Below, one piece after another: positions 3,001-15,000 of a stretch of DNA of 17,503 bases. This DNA comes from a virus. Lineage: Duplodnaviria; Heunggongvirae; Uroviricota; Caudoviricetes. Location: the IMG/VR virus record IMGVR_UViG_2740892231_000009; one strand, given 5' to 3'. Position 1 is the first letter of the stretch; each line of letters opens with the position of its first letter. The position numbers were made by a program.

Positions 3001-6000
3001 AAAAAAAAGCGACTAGTAGCTGAGGCTCTTGGAATTTCACATGTGGCTGTTGTGCGGTGGAAAGCAGTTATTCCCAAACTTCGCGCAATGGAACTGGATG
3101 AAATTACTAACGGTGAATTGAAATACAACCCAGAACTTTACAAGAAGCAGGATAGCACCTCGAACGAAGGAAAGAATGATTCATGAAAATCAAGCATGAA
3201 CACATCCGCATGGCGATGAATGTTTGGGCGCATCCGGACGGCGAAAAAGTGCCGGCTGCGAAAATTACCAAAGCGTATTTCGAGCTGGGAATGACGTTCC
3301 CGGAACTGTATGACGACAGCCATCCGGAAGCCCTGGCCCGTAATACCCAGAAAATTTTCCGTTGGCTGGATAAAGACACCCCTGATGCTGTTGAAAAAAT
3401 GCAGGCTCTGTTACCGGCGATCGAAAAGGCGATGCCGCCTTTGCTGGTGGCCCGTATGCGCAGCCACAGTTCTGAATATTACCGTGAGATCGTCGAACGG
3501 AGGGATCGGCTGGTGAAGGATGTCGATGATTTTGTTGCGTCAGCGGTTGTTTTGTATGACCAGATGAATCGCGGCGGCCCGGCAGGGAATGCTGTGGTGA
3601 TGCACTAAAAGCACGGTGTTCGGGGGTTTTATGAGCAGCAAGCTTCATGGTCTTGTCTGGGAAGGGTGCGCCTTCACCGGCATGATCTTATCCAGGGTGG
3701 CGGTTATGGCCCGTCTTGCAGACTACAGCAATGACGAGGGCGTGTCATGGCCTGCCATTGAAACTATCCGGCGTCAGATCGGTGCAAGAAGTGAATCCAC
3801 AGTGAAATCGGCTATTGCAGAACTGGCGAAAGAGGGCTGGCTGACGAAGGAAGAGCGTAAGGTCGGTGGGCGTAATGTAAGCAATATCTATCGGCTTAAT
3901 GTGGAAAAACTCGAAGCAGCTGCGGCGGCGGCGCGTGAGTCATATAAACCGAAAAGAAAAATTAGCCCGGCAAAAAATGACCCGTTAACAGTTGACCCGT
4001 CAAATATTGACCCCTCAACGGTTGACCCGTCAAATTTTGATGGATCAACTGTTGATAAAAAACTGCCGATTAGGGGGCCGATGATTGACCCCGATCCGTC
4101 AGTATTAAAACCTGATCCGTCAGATAAAAGATCTTCTTGTCCGGACGCTTCGCAACCGGACCCGCAGACGGCTGAACAGGATTTTTTAACCCGACACCCT
4201 GACGCGGTTGTGTTCAGTGCGAAAAAACGCCAGTGGGGAAGTCAGGAAGATTTGGTGTGCGCACAGTGGATCTGGGGACGAATCGTGAGTCTTTACGAGC
4301 AGGCGGCCAGCTATGATGGCGAGATCACTAGACCGAAAGAACCCAACTGGACAGCATGGGCCAATGACGTTCGCACAATGCGGATGCTGGATGGCAGAAC
4401 TCACAGACAAATTTGTGAAATGTTTGGGCGTCTCCAGCGGGATTCGTTCTGGGTAAAAAACATCATGAGTCCGGCAAAACTCCGGGAAAAATGGGATGAA
4501 CTGGTTATCCGCCTGGGGCGTTCGCCTGCGCAGCGTTGCGTGAATCACATTTCTGAACCGGACACTGAAATTCCGCCGGGCTTCAGGGGGTAAGTGTTAA
4601 TTTCTGGTCATGAGGTAATTTTCAGGAGGGCTTGTGGCAAAAGTTTTTACACAAGAAGAGCGGGAAAAAATTAAAGGGCAGGTTGTTGAACTCGTACGCC
4701 AGAGTGGGCGCGAGACGTTACGACAACTGGAAACTAAAACTGGGGCAACAAGATATCTGATGAGCGTTCTGGCCAGAGAGCTGGTTGCCAGTGGCGATGT
4801 ATACAACTCTGGTTACGGGTTATTCCCGTCTGAACAGGCGCGTAAGGACTGGCAAAATGCCCGTAAAAAGCTCTCAAGGGCAAAGCCGAAGAAACCATCT
4901 GCGGTTGATCCGGACCTTATCTGGTCATTACCAGATGGCGAAATACGCCGCTACGACAGGCGTCTGAACATAATCTGTCTCGAGTGCCGGAAGAGCGAAG
5001 TTATGCAGCGCGTACTGGCGTTTTATCAGGGGAATTTTGAGGAGGTGGTGCGGTGAGTGAATCAAAATGCCAGGTTAATGGCAACAAGATAGAACCATGT
5101 GCAGCACTGGCAAAGTCCCTTGAGCATGATGCTGAATACACGATGCGAAAAGGTCTGCTGATATACAAAATCTGGAATGAGAGTTTAACTCGCGGTCCTG
5201 ATTTTGTGATGTTGCGTTCCGGTGAATTTTCTAAATTACCAGTTCGGGTTTCATTTTGTCCGTTCTGTGGTGAAAGTCTGAAAACGTGGGAGAACAGAAA
5301 TGAATGAAATCAAAGAAATACCAGTAGTACGTGATGAATATGGCTGCTGGACGCATCCTGAATATGAAAAATTCTGTGACGGTCGGGAATATATTTCAAC
5401 GGAAGAGTTTAACGCCTGGATGGAGGAAAATAATCTTCAATACGTCCTCTGCTTCAGAGATGAAGGATGTGCTGACCTTGATGCGTGTGATGCTGATATT
5501 TCTGCATGGGAACCGGAACGACCAGAGGGCAATGGATGGTTTATTGGTTCAATACATGACACCGAAGATGGCCCGGTTTGTGTATGGCTGAGAAATAAGG
5601 CCGAAGCATAAAGGCTATAAACCGACTAACAACTAAATACTGAAGATTTAAATCAGAAACGATTTTTATTAAATCCTTAACCGGAGGGATTCCTGCACCC
5701 TCAAATCATCAGGAGGCCGCCCGAAAGGGCGGTGGAGATAATAATGGGAATAACTAAAGAACGATTGTTGGAAATAGCAAACCTTAGTGATTGGGCATTA
5801 AGTGATGAGAGAATTGTTTCTCCTCATGCTTATGAGTCAGTTACAAGTATAGAAATAACAACAATGGCTAGAATGCTGCTTGGTTATTTCAAAATAGAAA
5901 ATAAAAAACAGATGGATAGTAATGTTGATATATGTGATATTTTAGACGATTGGGGGGCTTGGGTTGTGGCTGGTAATAGTTCTATTGATTGGCAGGAAAT

Positions 6001-12000: not shown

Positions 12001-15000
12001 GCGTATAGAGTTTGTTTTGCCTTATCCACCGACGGTGAATACTTACTGGCGACGTCGTGGCAGCACATATTTTATATCTGAGGAGGGAAAGCGCTATCGC
12101 CGGGCAGTGGCGCTTATTGTTCGCCAGCAGCGGCTGAAATTAAGCCTGTCCGGAAGGCTGGCGATAAAGGTGATTGCAGAGCCACCGGATAAGCGCCGCC
12201 GTGACCTGGATAATATCCTGAAAGCGCCGCTGGATGCGCTGACGCATGCAGGGTTGTTAATGGACGATGAGCAGTTTGATGAAATCAATATTGTACGTGG
12301 CCAGCCAGTATCTGGTGGACGGCTGGAGATAAGAATTACAGAGGTGGGTGTGCATGAATAACCAGTATTTACAGTTTGTTCGTGAGCAACTCATGATTGC
12401 CACTGCGGATCTCAGTGTGTCGATAAAAGGCCAACTGGAAGCCTGGCAGGAAAATGCACTGTTCGATACAGGGCGTTACAGACGCAAAAAAATTCGTTAC
12501 CGCGATGAGGTAACCGGAAAAATGATCACGCGGGATAACCCACCGATCCCGGGTAAACAATCACTGGCGAAAGGGACGTCAATTGCTCTGGTCAGTCCGG
12601 TTGAGTTTTCGACATCATCATGGCGACGTGCAGTTCTGGAACTGGAAGCGCATCAGAAGGCGTGGTTGTTGTGGTGTTACGGCGGAAACATTTGCTGGGA
12701 GTATCAGATTGCGATAACGCAGTGGGCGTGGAATGAATTTAATACTCAATCCGGTACCAGAAAAATAGCTGGGAAAACGCTGGAACGTCTGAAGAAGTTG
12801 ATCTGGCTGGCGGCGCAAGCGGTAAAAGCTGAGCTTTTTGGTGGGGAAGGTTATGAATACCGGGATCTGGCATCACTGGTGGGAGTGACATCAAAAAACT
12901 GGTCTGAGACATTTACTGAACGCTGGGTTGCAATGAAGCACATTTTTCTACAGCTTGATAGCCAAGCTTTATTGCTTTTAACGAAAACACGTTCAAAACA
13001 AAAGACCACATTTTCACAGCAAAATATTGCAAAACTGGATTAAAAAGCATATATTTCATGTAAATCTGATATTTTGCCGATTTTGTACGCGATGGCAAAG
13101 TAAGCAAACCCCGCCGCCGAGCGGGTTTTTTTGTTGGCTTAACAGGTTATAATGTACAGTGCGAAACTGCCTGTTCAGCAGAATCATTTTGTTTGTAGTG
13201 GAGTTCACAAGTCGTCATTATCAGGCAAAGAGATTTATGGTGTTAAAGTATCAGCCGTCTGTTCGTTCTGTTTTAATGTGTGATTTTCGGGGAATGGTTG
13301 TTCCGGAAATAGTCAAGGTCAGGCCAGTGGTAGTCGTGTCCAGAAACAGACACAACAATCAATTGGTAACAGTGGTACCAATAAGCACTACTGAACCGAT
13401 TCCTCGCAGAGATTGCCATCATGAGTTATCAGAAAACCCCATCCCTGGTAATGAGCATATTACTTGTTGGGTAAAATGTGACATGTTGATGACGGTTTCA
13501 TTGAGCCGACTGGATCGCATAAAAACTAGAACCTGGGAGGGGCGAAATTATATTGTTCCTATGATTGCGGAAGATGAGTTTGAGAATATTAAACGGGCGG
13601 TATTGCACGGGATAGGGATGGCTTATCTGTATCGATAATCGAAAACGATTATCGAATTCGATATGAATTTATATTGACACACATAGTGTGTTGACTGATA
13701 CTGTCGCTGTACCCTGATGGGACTTGTGAGACTTCCGAACTGGAAGCCAGGAGTAGCAATAAGGTGATGACAAGCCTGCTGCCCCTGTGTAAAAGGCACC
13801 TTAATGGTGCCTTTGTCGTTTTTATCAAAAGATCCCCGCCACTGGCGGGTTTTTTTATGCCCGAAAAACGACACAGGGCGTTAAACGCGCTGGTGGTTGC
13901 GAATACTGGTCTTTTCAGCTTGCTGGCTTTTTTGACAAGAGTTATTGGTGTGTCACGTTAACCGGAAAAAGGAAAAAGACATGCTGAAACAGCAGGATAT
14001 GACAGAAACCGCCAGAGTGGTGTTTAATGAATTAAGTGCCACCGAACCGGCGACAGTCGGGGAGATTGCGCAGAATACTTATCTTTCACGTGAACGCTGC
14101 CAGTTAATACTGACCCAGCTTGTTATGGCGGGTCTGGCAGACTATCAGTTCGGTTGTTANNNNNNNNNNAAATACTACTCCCCAAAATCCCCCGGCCTGA
14201 CTGATGCATCGGCCTCAACGTCAAAAGATGCGCTGAGTATCACTGATGTGATGGCCGCGCAGGGCATGACACAGAATCGGGCTGAGATGGGGTTTTCTGC
14301 GTTCCTTGGGAGAATGGGCATTAGTATGAATGACAGAGAGCGGGCAACAGAATTGCTGACAGAATATGCACTCAGTCGGTGTGATCGCGTGGCGGCGTTA
14401 AGAAAACTCCCGGCAGAAATAAAACCGGCAGTGATGCGTATTATGGCTTCGTATGCGTTTGAAGATTATGCCCGTAGCGCGGCGAGCAAAAAACAGTGCC
14501 CCTGCTGTCACGGAAAAAAATTTATTGAAAGCGAGGTTTTTACAAACAAGATCCAGTATCCGGATGGTAAGCCGCCAGTGTGGGCAAAGTGCACAAAAGG
14601 CGTGTATCCGTCTTACTGGGAGGAATGGAAAAAAGTCAGGGAGGTGGTAAAAGTTGCCTGTCCGGAGTGTGGCGGAAAGGGGGAGGTTTCCACCGCCTGT
14701 AAAGATTGTCGTGGGCGCGGTGTTGCCATTCATCGTGAAGAGTCGGAAAAACAGGGTGTGCCGGTTTTCAGAAACTGCCAGCGTTGTGGTGGGCGTGGCT
14801 ATGAAAGATTACCTTCAACGGAGGCATTTAATGCCATATGTAATGTAACCGATGCCATATCTCTTGATACATGGAAAAAAACAGTTAAACGTTTTTACGA
14901 TACGCTGGTGGTGCAGTTTGATATTGAAGAAGCATGGGCAGAACAACAACTGAAAAAGGTGACCAGATAGCTTTGTTGATTTTTCCCGAATCTGTGGTAA

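Follow-up and report, generated by a model that had tools for sequence, protein, structure and literature searches.

The 17,503-nt record IMGVR_UViG_2740892231_000009 of IMG/VR (Caudoviricetes; this whole stretch is called the window here) carries three genes for Q-type antiterminators, all on the plus strand: Q1 at 5744-6265, Q2 at 12354-13043 and Q3 at 14170-14970. The best explanation, to which we give a probability of about 0.72, is that the window consists of chained contigs in which Q3 is foreign, and that Q1 and Q2 belong to one mosaic prophage, with Q2 the likely late switch and Q1 orphaned. An earlier sequence-only reading had located the three genes at these positions and described the region as either mosaic or misassembled. 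Our results give each term a share, historical mosaicism for Q1 and Q2 and misassembly for Q3, and neither accounts for all three genes.

A homology search found all three products to be Q-like, each matching a different family far above the Pfam cut-off. Q1 encodes a 173-aa protein of the Q21/QuuD family (PF06530, 107.9 bits, cut-off 26), Q2 a 229-aa protein of the phage 82/434 type (PF06323, 301.1 bits over the full length, cut-off 25) and Q3 a 5'-truncated protein of the lambda/QuuQ type (PF03589, 171.8 bits, cut-off 26.7) with a match to the DnaJ-type CXXCXGXG motif. These families have no shared sequence similarity and occupy equivalent genome positions (Yin, Kaelber and Ebright, bioRxiv 10.1101/651190); the window has one member of each of the three known Q families. 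The previous assignments of Q1 as QuuD-type and of Q3 as lambda-type with zinc motifs were correct. For Q2, an assignment made from synteny alone is fully borne out by the Pfam score and by ~80% DNA identity to the phage 82 Q gene; of the label "82/QuuQ-type" only the first half holds, since QuuQ is a relative of Q3 and belongs to a different family.

Scaffold structure of the window

Six runs of exactly 10 N interrupt the window (11351-11360, 14160-14169, 15973-15982, 16659-16668, 16935-16944 and 17401-17410), which is thus a scaffold of seven contigs. The first gap separates Q1 from Q2 and the second Q2 from Q3, so that presence in one window does not equal presence on one molecule. When the window is compared with itself, every contig shares its terminal sequence with its successor, at 91-98% identity and never at 100%. 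The geometry has one exception, in which the end of contig 2 (13837-14159) corresponds at 91% identity to the middle of contig 3 (15056-15374), downstream of Q3. A single reference prophage accommodates all contigs as overlapping tiles, except that 886 bases at the start of contig 3, holding Q3 and its leader, remain as an unaligned overhang. Such a pattern is what a chain of paralogous prophage copies in a short-read assembly would be expected to give.

The gene content around the gaps shows the same duplication. A DUF968 (YdfU-like) gene (10708-11986, plus strand) is split by the first gap, with PF06147 matches on both halves; ~219 bp of it occurs twice (11137-11350 and 11366-11579, 93.9% identity, 13 mismatches), and merging the overlap gives a 1050-nt gene as in the complete genome N51. 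The start of the late region (15196-17503, plus strand) comprises a small open reading frame (ORF; phrog_331) and then a DNA methyltransferase gene, with contig overlaps of 94-98% identity. The methylase part (15544-17503, contigs 3-7) consists of overlapping fragments, four to five in number and 2-6% different from one another. The reference prophages have a single methylase gene of 1059 nt, onto which all the fragments tile, and the source genome therefore probably holds at least three paralogous prophage copies of this region. Taken together, the window probably unites, by 10-N spacers, contigs that derive from at least two, and most likely three, related lambdoid prophages resident in the same E. 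coli genome.

For the junction across 14160-14169, a search of 5,426 complete E. coli genomes gave no hit; the closest matches there are reversed in order, with the small ORF after Q3, as inside contig 3. A single contiguous three-Q locus is thus not supported, because N gaps interrupt it and its Q2-to-Q3 junction is absent from these genomes. Given the gaps, the 91-98% overlaps, the end of contig 2 lying in the middle of contig 3 and the missing junction, the adjacency of Q3 to Q1 and Q2 is an assembly artefact: contig 3 was put after contig 2 because both share the downstream late-region repeat. At this gap the scaffold creates a false Q2-Q3 neighbourhood and a false ORF of 341 aa (13945-14970), which is a fusion across the N run. 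The proposal that the scaffold joins contigs of different prophages is accordingly right for Q3 and the methylase fragments that follow it, and wrong for Q1 and Q2.

It would be the least probable of all the readings considered here that the scaffold is correct as written, with Q2, a truncated small ORF, Q3 and tandem methylase fragments contiguous in a rearranged, duplicated late region. The contig order presumably had some scaffolding evidence, and ompW can harbour lambdoid prophages in tandem, as in ~90-kb records of PPompW together with a Stx2a phage; in these tandem cases, however, the Q genes are ~40 kb apart. Moreover, as written, Q3 would have neither a start codon nor an upstream rusA, and the small ORF and the methylase gene would break off and begin anew four to five times, their repeated parts diverging by 2-9%. 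More generally, where N runs and near-identical contig ends occur in a draft E. coli scaffold, alternative alleles of a single prophage slot can come to lie side by side, an arrangement that can yield false fusion ORFs and false gene clusters.

Q1 and Q2 in one mosaic prophage at ompW

Contig 1 (1-11350) is 99.96% identical over 11,350 bp to one N51 prophage, including the same IS421 site. The N51 prophage then continues with sequence that the core of contig 2 (11512-13906) matches at 100% identity, all differences lying at the contig ends. Adjacent to ompW, the N51 order is int, xis, exo, dicB, repressor, cro, ydaT, replication genes, DUF977 and Q1. It proceeds with three minus-strand genes, hokD, IS421, DUF968, rusA, Q2, PemK, the small ORF and the methylase, followed by tRNAs, lysis, terminase, capsid and portal genes. 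Each module is present in one copy, and there is no Q3. The finished genome E2348/69 has the same layout without the insertion sequence (IS), and the Q1-to-Q2 order is also found in 2013C-3181. The ompW prophages of E2348/69 and N51 are 98.5-99.96% identical to the window over Q1-cassette-hok-DUF968 and then carry rusA and an 82-type Q; that of E2348/69 has no IS, PemK or methylase gene, and neither has a Q3-type gene.

These comparisons indicate that Q1 and Q2 are truly linked in one mosaic prophage at ompW. Two Q-family genes per prophage are a recurrent, conserved layout and not a sign of misassembly. The premise that one phage needs only one Q remains sound in the functional sense, as only Q2 keeps a complete target, and fails as a signal of misassembly. 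A literature search for phages with two Q genes found nothing relevant. The isolated phage mEp460_4F5 was considered as a precedent and rejected, its 990-nt "antitermination protein Q" gene being a mis-annotated DUF968/YdfU gene. This misnamed gene (L008 1488-2477, LR595868) could mislead counts of Q genes.

The sequence-only reading had offered a different explanation of Q1 and Q2, namely two decayed prophage remnants lying end to end, with their boundary at the cassette, hok and the IS. There is indeed a module boundary between cassette and hok: homology with the hok modules of other prophages begins at ~8575, and the hok/sok locus (8588-8913, plus strand; sok RNA 8588-8763, Rfam sok 117 bits; hokD coding sequence 8758-8913, PF01848, annotated hokD by PGAP) is the start of the second nin-Q module. 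The cassette has a guanine-plus-cytosine (GC) content of 32-38%, and an IS is nearby. Nevertheless, we regard this reading as very improbable. N51, 2013C-3181 and E2348/69 show one full-length ompW prophage carrying both genes, and the complete genomes have a single int/xis, immunity region, replication module, lysis cassette and terminase-portal-capsid set, flanked by ompW. Qin-type phages carry hok-DUF968-(rusA)-Q as a standard internal module, and K-12 Qin itself has the hokD-DUF968(YdfU)-Q order of the window.

The IS does not mark the junction either. It is an IS421/IS186-type element of the IS4 family (8934-10275, minus strand; DDE_Tnp_1, IS421 transposase by PGAP) with perfect 25-bp terminal inverted repeats (8934-8958 and 10251-10275), inserted just after hokD. 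It is absent from E2348/69 and most related loci, and occupies the same site in N51, 2013C-3181 and the IMG/VR locus L028, which are full-length relatives. The IS was acquired recently and does not belong to the junction of the modules. In a group of Shiga-toxin-producing E. coli genomes, the Q1-cassette-hok-IS block occurs with different flanks.

Q3 occupies the slot that Q2 fills here

Q3 is incomplete: it begins at the first base after the 10-N gap, 7 codons are missing, and its match starts 21 nt inside the full 822-nt gene of FHI_NMBU_10. The protein matches the lambda Q structures 7UBM (E 3e-39, in two stretches, from lambda residue 8) and 4MO1 (E 2.8e-28), and is 39% identical to K-12 QuuQ/YdfT and 31% to lambda Q, from which it differs by an extra DnaJ-like zinc-finger insertion of ~68 aa. 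Aligned with lambda 44480-44700, its leader (14976-15075, plus strand) has a candidate late promoter with -35 TTGATT (14976-14981) and -10 TAAATT (14998-15003), the stretch GGTAAATTTG being identical to lambda PR'. A -10-like pause-element position, AACTAT (15010-15015), corresponds to the AACGAT position of lambda, and a scan places a terminator at 15050-15075. The sequence between -35 and -10, which is the binding-site region, is not conserved with lambda. The Q3 leader thus resembles the lambda PR'/6S leader/tR' arrangement in its -10 hexamer, pause-element position and following terminator, and differs in being shorter and in following a gene truncated by a contig end.

In complete genomes, Q2-type and Q3-type genes share the slot DUF968-rusA-Q-leader/terminator-small ORF-methylase-tRNAs, in different prophages; in FHI_NMBU_10 the two loci lie ~830 kb apart. 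Similarity between contigs 2 and 3 starts precisely at the terminator (13835 and 15050), so each Q carries its own leader up to that point. Q3 appears, from these alignments, to come from a different prophage or allele, in the slot filled here by Q2. Two Qs of unrelated families, each with its own promoter, leader and terminator, are swapped at the same boundaries, which makes this a clear case of lambdoid modular exchange.

Q2 and its leader

Q2 is at the canonical position, directly downstream of the Holliday-junction resolvase gene rusA (11999-12361, plus strand; PF05866 65.7 bits, NCBIfam RusA), as in phage 82. Its gene is 79.8% identical at the DNA level to the phage 82 Q gene (X92588) and ~77% to that of phage 434, and the protein is 75.5% identical to phage 434 Q. 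A promoter scan revealed a candidate late promoter, TTGCAA-17-TATATT, at 13027-13055 on the plus strand, overlapping the Q2 stop codon, and a terminator scan an intrinsic terminator of the leader at 13107-13133 on the same strand. The block 13027-13133 is conserved with E2348/69 and with phage 434, where the terminator is annotated. Q2 thus has the layout of the 82 family, with a candidate late promoter and a terminator adjacent to the gene, after nin/rusA genes. Since this promoter-terminator unit is kept and conserved with phage 434, Q2 is likely to be the operative late-gene antiterminator of the ompW prophage.

Homology with PPompW phages stops at 13134. Between the Q2 terminator and the shared late leader lies a gene for a PemK/MazF-family toxin (13237-13638, plus strand; PF02452 52 bits, phrog_1936 MazF-like), which is absent at this position in E2348/69; no antitoxin ORF is recognisable beside it. 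It is followed by a promoter, TTGACA-17-GATACT (13674-13702, plus strand), and by terminators at 13792-13822 and 13835-13857 (plus strand), all found by scanning. The toxin gene and this extra promoter-terminator unit set the window apart from phages 82 and 434. The sequence-only reading had taken 13674-13857 as the late promoter with twin terminators; the signals are present, but the late promoter of Q2 is more likely the one at 13027-13055 with its terminator at 13107-13133. Similarity to the phage collection begins only at 13835, so that the second terminator alone belongs to the widely shared late leader, and the 13674-13857 unit has no similarity to the post-Q regions of phages with Q1-type genes. 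A small RNA could be encoded between the strong promoter-like site at 13674 and the terminator ~100 nt downstream; E2348/69 lacks this insertion.

An intact Q1 with a partial leader element

The Q1 match covers positions 3-112 of the 118 in the PF06530 model, and the protein belongs to phrog_79, "anti-termination protein Q-like" (E 2.8e-33). It is 35% identical to K-12 QuuD (E 5e-24), matches the Q21 structures 6P18/6JNX weakly (E 4.5e-4) and gives weak Sigma70_r4 matches in a Pfam scan of the window. Over residues 62-171, the protein shares 55-60% identity with Qs from several Stx1a/Stx2a phages, from mEp460 and from Klebsiella phages. Q1 is composed of this core of ~110 aa and an additional N-terminal part of ~60 aa that matches phrog_3323, a family of small proteins in its own right. 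In canonical phages a small ORF precedes Q, and its fusion to Q was considered as the origin of the extension and discarded, there being no similarity.

An alignment of 12 loci defines a conserved element of ~60 nt, TAACGCGTACGCAAAAACTATCGTAAnnTGTTAAGAGTGGTnAC...CTTAA, that lies just beyond the cassette in every divergent locus and is followed by a terminator in several. The complete element with a terminator is found in 569R4, mEp460_4F5, a Klebsiella phage, Stx2a_1447, Stx1_499 and K-12 DLP12, exactly once per phage and at the same relative place, just past the cargo genes. In the window only a left part is left, at 8483-8512 on the plus strand (GTGCGTACGCAAAAACTATCTAACATGATG, beginning GTGCGTACGCAAAAACTATC), which holds the 10-bp palindrome TGCGTACGCA. 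A comparison of 8418-8700 with the post-Q regions of phages with Q1-type genes gave only a 12-nt match at 8485, which taken alone is at chance level and became meaningful only after it recurred at the same relative position in every further locus.

The right part of the element (TGTTAAGAGTGGTnAC...CTTAA) and its terminator are absent from the window, which has one exact copy of the left part only. Likewise, the N51 and E2348/69 prophage stretches, lysis region included, have the left part and no right part anywhere. Prophages without Q1 have neither part, and the left motif co-occurs only with a Q1-type Q. In the sample examined, short Qs (~113 aa) always come with the full element, and N-extended Qs with the left part only. 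Rac-type prophages follow this rule: they carry an N-extended Q1 homolog (74% identical), another two-gene cargo, the 14-nt motif, hok, and then a nin module that ends in a DUF1133 protein.

The left part keeps its dyad symmetry through sequence changes (GCGTACGC, GCGGTCCGC, ACGTACGT, and TTTACGTACGTAAA in DLP12; copies examined at window 8483-8496, at L058 7199-7212 and in L031, L033 and L035), which points to a site bound by a dimer or to a short hairpin. For Q21 itself, the binding site consists of a direct repeat, and Q21-family proteins have a sigma region-4-like DNA-binding fold (bioRxiv 10.1101/651190); the palindromic left part is unlike that site. Several -10-like hexamers are possible within the conserved element. 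Because the element recurs beyond varied cargo, and because the DLP12 lysis operon is reported to be under the control of a Q-type antiterminator (PMC7918800), we read it as the putative late promoter and Q-loading leader of the Q1 subfamily, the space between Q and element being a putative cargo slot.

Q1 itself is not the last regulator before the late operon, as a complete hok-DUF968-rusA-Q2-leader module intervenes. Its cognate promoter-pause-terminator unit is reduced to the left 14-30 nt of the element in the window and in the N51 and E2348/69 prophages. Being without a complete loading site, Q1, though intact, appears orphaned and is probably not the late switch.

Proposed late control

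We propose a scheme for late control in the ompW prophage that is modelled on the known mechanism of the Q families. Early rightward transcription would read through Q1, pass antisense across the cassette and continue via hok-DUF968-rusA into Q2. The Q2 protein would then load on RNA polymerase paused just past the promoter at 13027-13055, and the modified polymerase would read through the terminators at 13107-13133, 13792 and 13835 into the late genes. Q1 would be the Q half of a split module that became joined to the hok...Q2 module inside the element, leaving its left 14-30 nt.

Several points weigh against this explanation. The linkage of Q1 and Q2 in the source genome itself is deduced from near-identical complete genomes, and the start sites, pause sites and Q-binding elements are predictions from sequence only. 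The loci L010, L011, L014 and L016 pair Q1-cassette-hok with a Q3-type gene, and contig 1 could thus continue to Q3. Finally, an intact Q1 under selection argues against a decaying relic and hints at retained function: of 19 related loci, 16 have an intact Q1, with a ratio of non-synonymous to synonymous substitution rates (dN/dS) of ~0.35 in both N-extension and core, an estimate that rests on ~37 substitutions from essentially one allele pair.

The third of these points belongs to an alternative in which the prophage of contig 1 runs Q1-cassette-hok-IS-DUF968-rusA-Q3, and contig 2 with Q2 derives from a second prophage. The Q3-type gene of the four loci is 90-97% identical to Q3 of the window, 13 of 214 positions differ between the end of contig 1 and the start of contig 2, and contig 2 as a whole is closer to a Q1-less prophage of FHI_NMBU_10 (99.7%) than to N51 (99.1%). 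However, the DUF968 allele of the Q3-linked loci is only ~92% identical to that of contig 1, whereas N51, 2013C-3181 and L028 share both the contig 1 allele and the IS at 99.9-100% identity. The continuation of contig 1 is visible in N51 and 2013C-3181, where it leads to Q2, and N51 is 100% identical to the core of contig 2. We consider a continuation of contig 1 into Q3 distinctly unlikely.

The selection on Q1 leads to another alternative, in which Q1 is a working regulator. Q1 would then bind the palindromic half-element at 8483-8496 and control the divergent cargo promoter or the transcription that enters the hok...Q2 module, or Q1 would serve as the early antiterminator of a cascade leading to Q2. 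The recurrence of the N-extended type with other cargo in Rac-type prophages, the 14-nt motif kept beyond that cargo, the restriction of the motif to Q1-type Qs, its symmetric variants and the sigma region-4-like fold of the Q21 family all fit this view. On the other side, neither a terminator nor a recognisable block of pause elements follows the remnant, the Q21 site is not a palindrome, and the selection estimate has the narrow basis given above. A regulatory role of Q1 is unlikely on this evidence, and an orphaned Q1 upstream of an operative Q2 remains our preferred explanation.

The cargo slot and the minus-strand cassette

The cargo cassette (6262-8417, minus strand) is convergent with Q1 and contains three genes: C1 (6262-6855), coding for ~200 aa with a PD-(D/E)xK-like motif; C2 (6896-7324), ~140 aa without an assignment; and C3 (7272-8417), ~360 aa with an RdgC/RexA-like fold in structure prediction. 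None of the proteins matches Pfam. In a search against PADLOC 2023, only C1 gave a match, to the candidate PDC-S54 (E 0.002), and no described defence system was matched; one distant C1 homolog is named "Restriction endonuclease" in UniRef. Compared with N51, C3 has two 1-nt indels (window 7382 and 8410), and its shifted C-terminus overlaps C2 by 53 nt. It is called as only 621 nt in N51 and is an intact 1092-nt gene in E2348/69; the indels could be sequencing errors or real inactivating mutations.

Of the 36 viral contigs retrieved with the C1 protein as query, whose C1 identities range from 33% to 100%, all 36 have a PF06530 Q gene that directly faces the cassette in convergent orientation. 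The combination of cassette and Q1 is rare among complete E. coli genomes (14 of 5,426). The same three genes in the same order occur without a Q neighbour in Shewanella, Photobacterium and other hosts, beside a resolvase, a DUF6538 protein, helix-turn-helix regulators, a VspR-like regulator and helicases, which makes the cassette an autonomous unit. A functional dependence of the cassette on Q, which the 36 of 36 adjacency might suggest, is weakened by these distant Q-less sets and by the other cargos in the slot. The set (window; L009 13614-15721; L046-L051) is conserved from E. coli phages to islands of Vibrio, Shewanella and Photobacterium.

The slot holds different genes in different phages. 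The cargos of 569R4, mEp460_4F5 and Stx2a_1447 are each other minus-strand sets of one to two genes, and in the Klebsiella phage ST846-OXA48phi9.1 (L055 2586-3978) the slot cargo is Kiwa (PADLOC E 1e-82 and 5e-144). The Shiga-toxin phages Stx2a_1447 (L056 3858-5421) and Stx1_499 (L009 13614-15721) carry uncharacterised cargo between Q and the stx-upstream promoter. In such Shiga-toxin phages, cargo in the slot and its transcription could affect toxin expression. The cassette is a plausible candidate for a new defence system, on the circumstantial grounds of Kiwa in the same slot, island-like contexts, the nuclease-like motif of C1 and the RdgC/RexA-like fold of C3.

It is tempting to speculate that the N-extended Q1 is a re-purposed Q that has given up late-gene activation and remains on the palindromic half of its former loading site, where it would guard or regulate a place at which Qin/Rac-type prophages exchange cargo. 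The cargo of the window would then be an undescribed three-gene anti-phage system, made up of an RdgC/RexA-like DNA-binding protein, a small protein and a PD-(D/E)xK nuclease, and the slot a hotspot for defence genes and morons, also upstream of stx1 and stx2. We offer this idea tentatively, as possible though doubtful. A QuuD-like Q subfamily in which gene and target promoter are held apart by a slot with nmpC, Kiwa or the three-gene cassette would be worth following up.

Comparison with known systems

The closest parallel to the Q1 arrangement is K-12 DLP12 (quuD, nmpC on the minus strand, essD-rrrD-rzpD), which, like the window, has a Q21/QuuD-family Q with convergent cargo. Beyond nmpC, DLP12 has the element TTTACGTACGTAAAA...TGTTAAGAGTGGTTAC...CTTAA and a terminator directly upstream of the essD/lysis genes. 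DLP12 thus keeps the whole element with a single Q-family gene, whereas the window has the left 14-30 nt, no terminator and other cargo, and in addition the N-extension of ~60 aa on Q1 and a second complete Q module downstream.

The Stx1a-converting phage Stx1_499 (LC567825) has a short Q from the subfamily of Q1, with 60% identity to the Q1 core, and a homologous three-gene minus-strand cassette (C1 33%, C2 27% and C3 23% identical) between Q and stx1A. This Q is its sole annotated Q gene, and a complete element with a terminator lies directly upstream of stx1AB; in the window the element is truncated and a second Q module is present. No new kind of system is required to explain the window, and some novelty lies only in the N-extended orphan Q1 and the uncharacterised cassette.

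Other observations

The DUF1133 protein at the canonical Q position of the THO-008 Rac-type prophage (L052 13848-14390) scores 27.1 bits against PF06530 (cut-off 26). DUF1133 may be a divergent branch of the Q21 family, in which case the THO-008 prophage would be another carrier of two Q-family genes.

At the left end of the window, the small RNA DicF (644-695, minus strand, Rfam 75.8 bits) lies beside dicB/ydfABC-type genes, which places the prophage in the Qin/dicB group. A replication-initiator-like gene (3616-4593) contains a direct repeat with a 30-bp period at 3966-4040 (84% identical copies, DPSxxDPS...), reminiscent of the origin iterons within lambda O.

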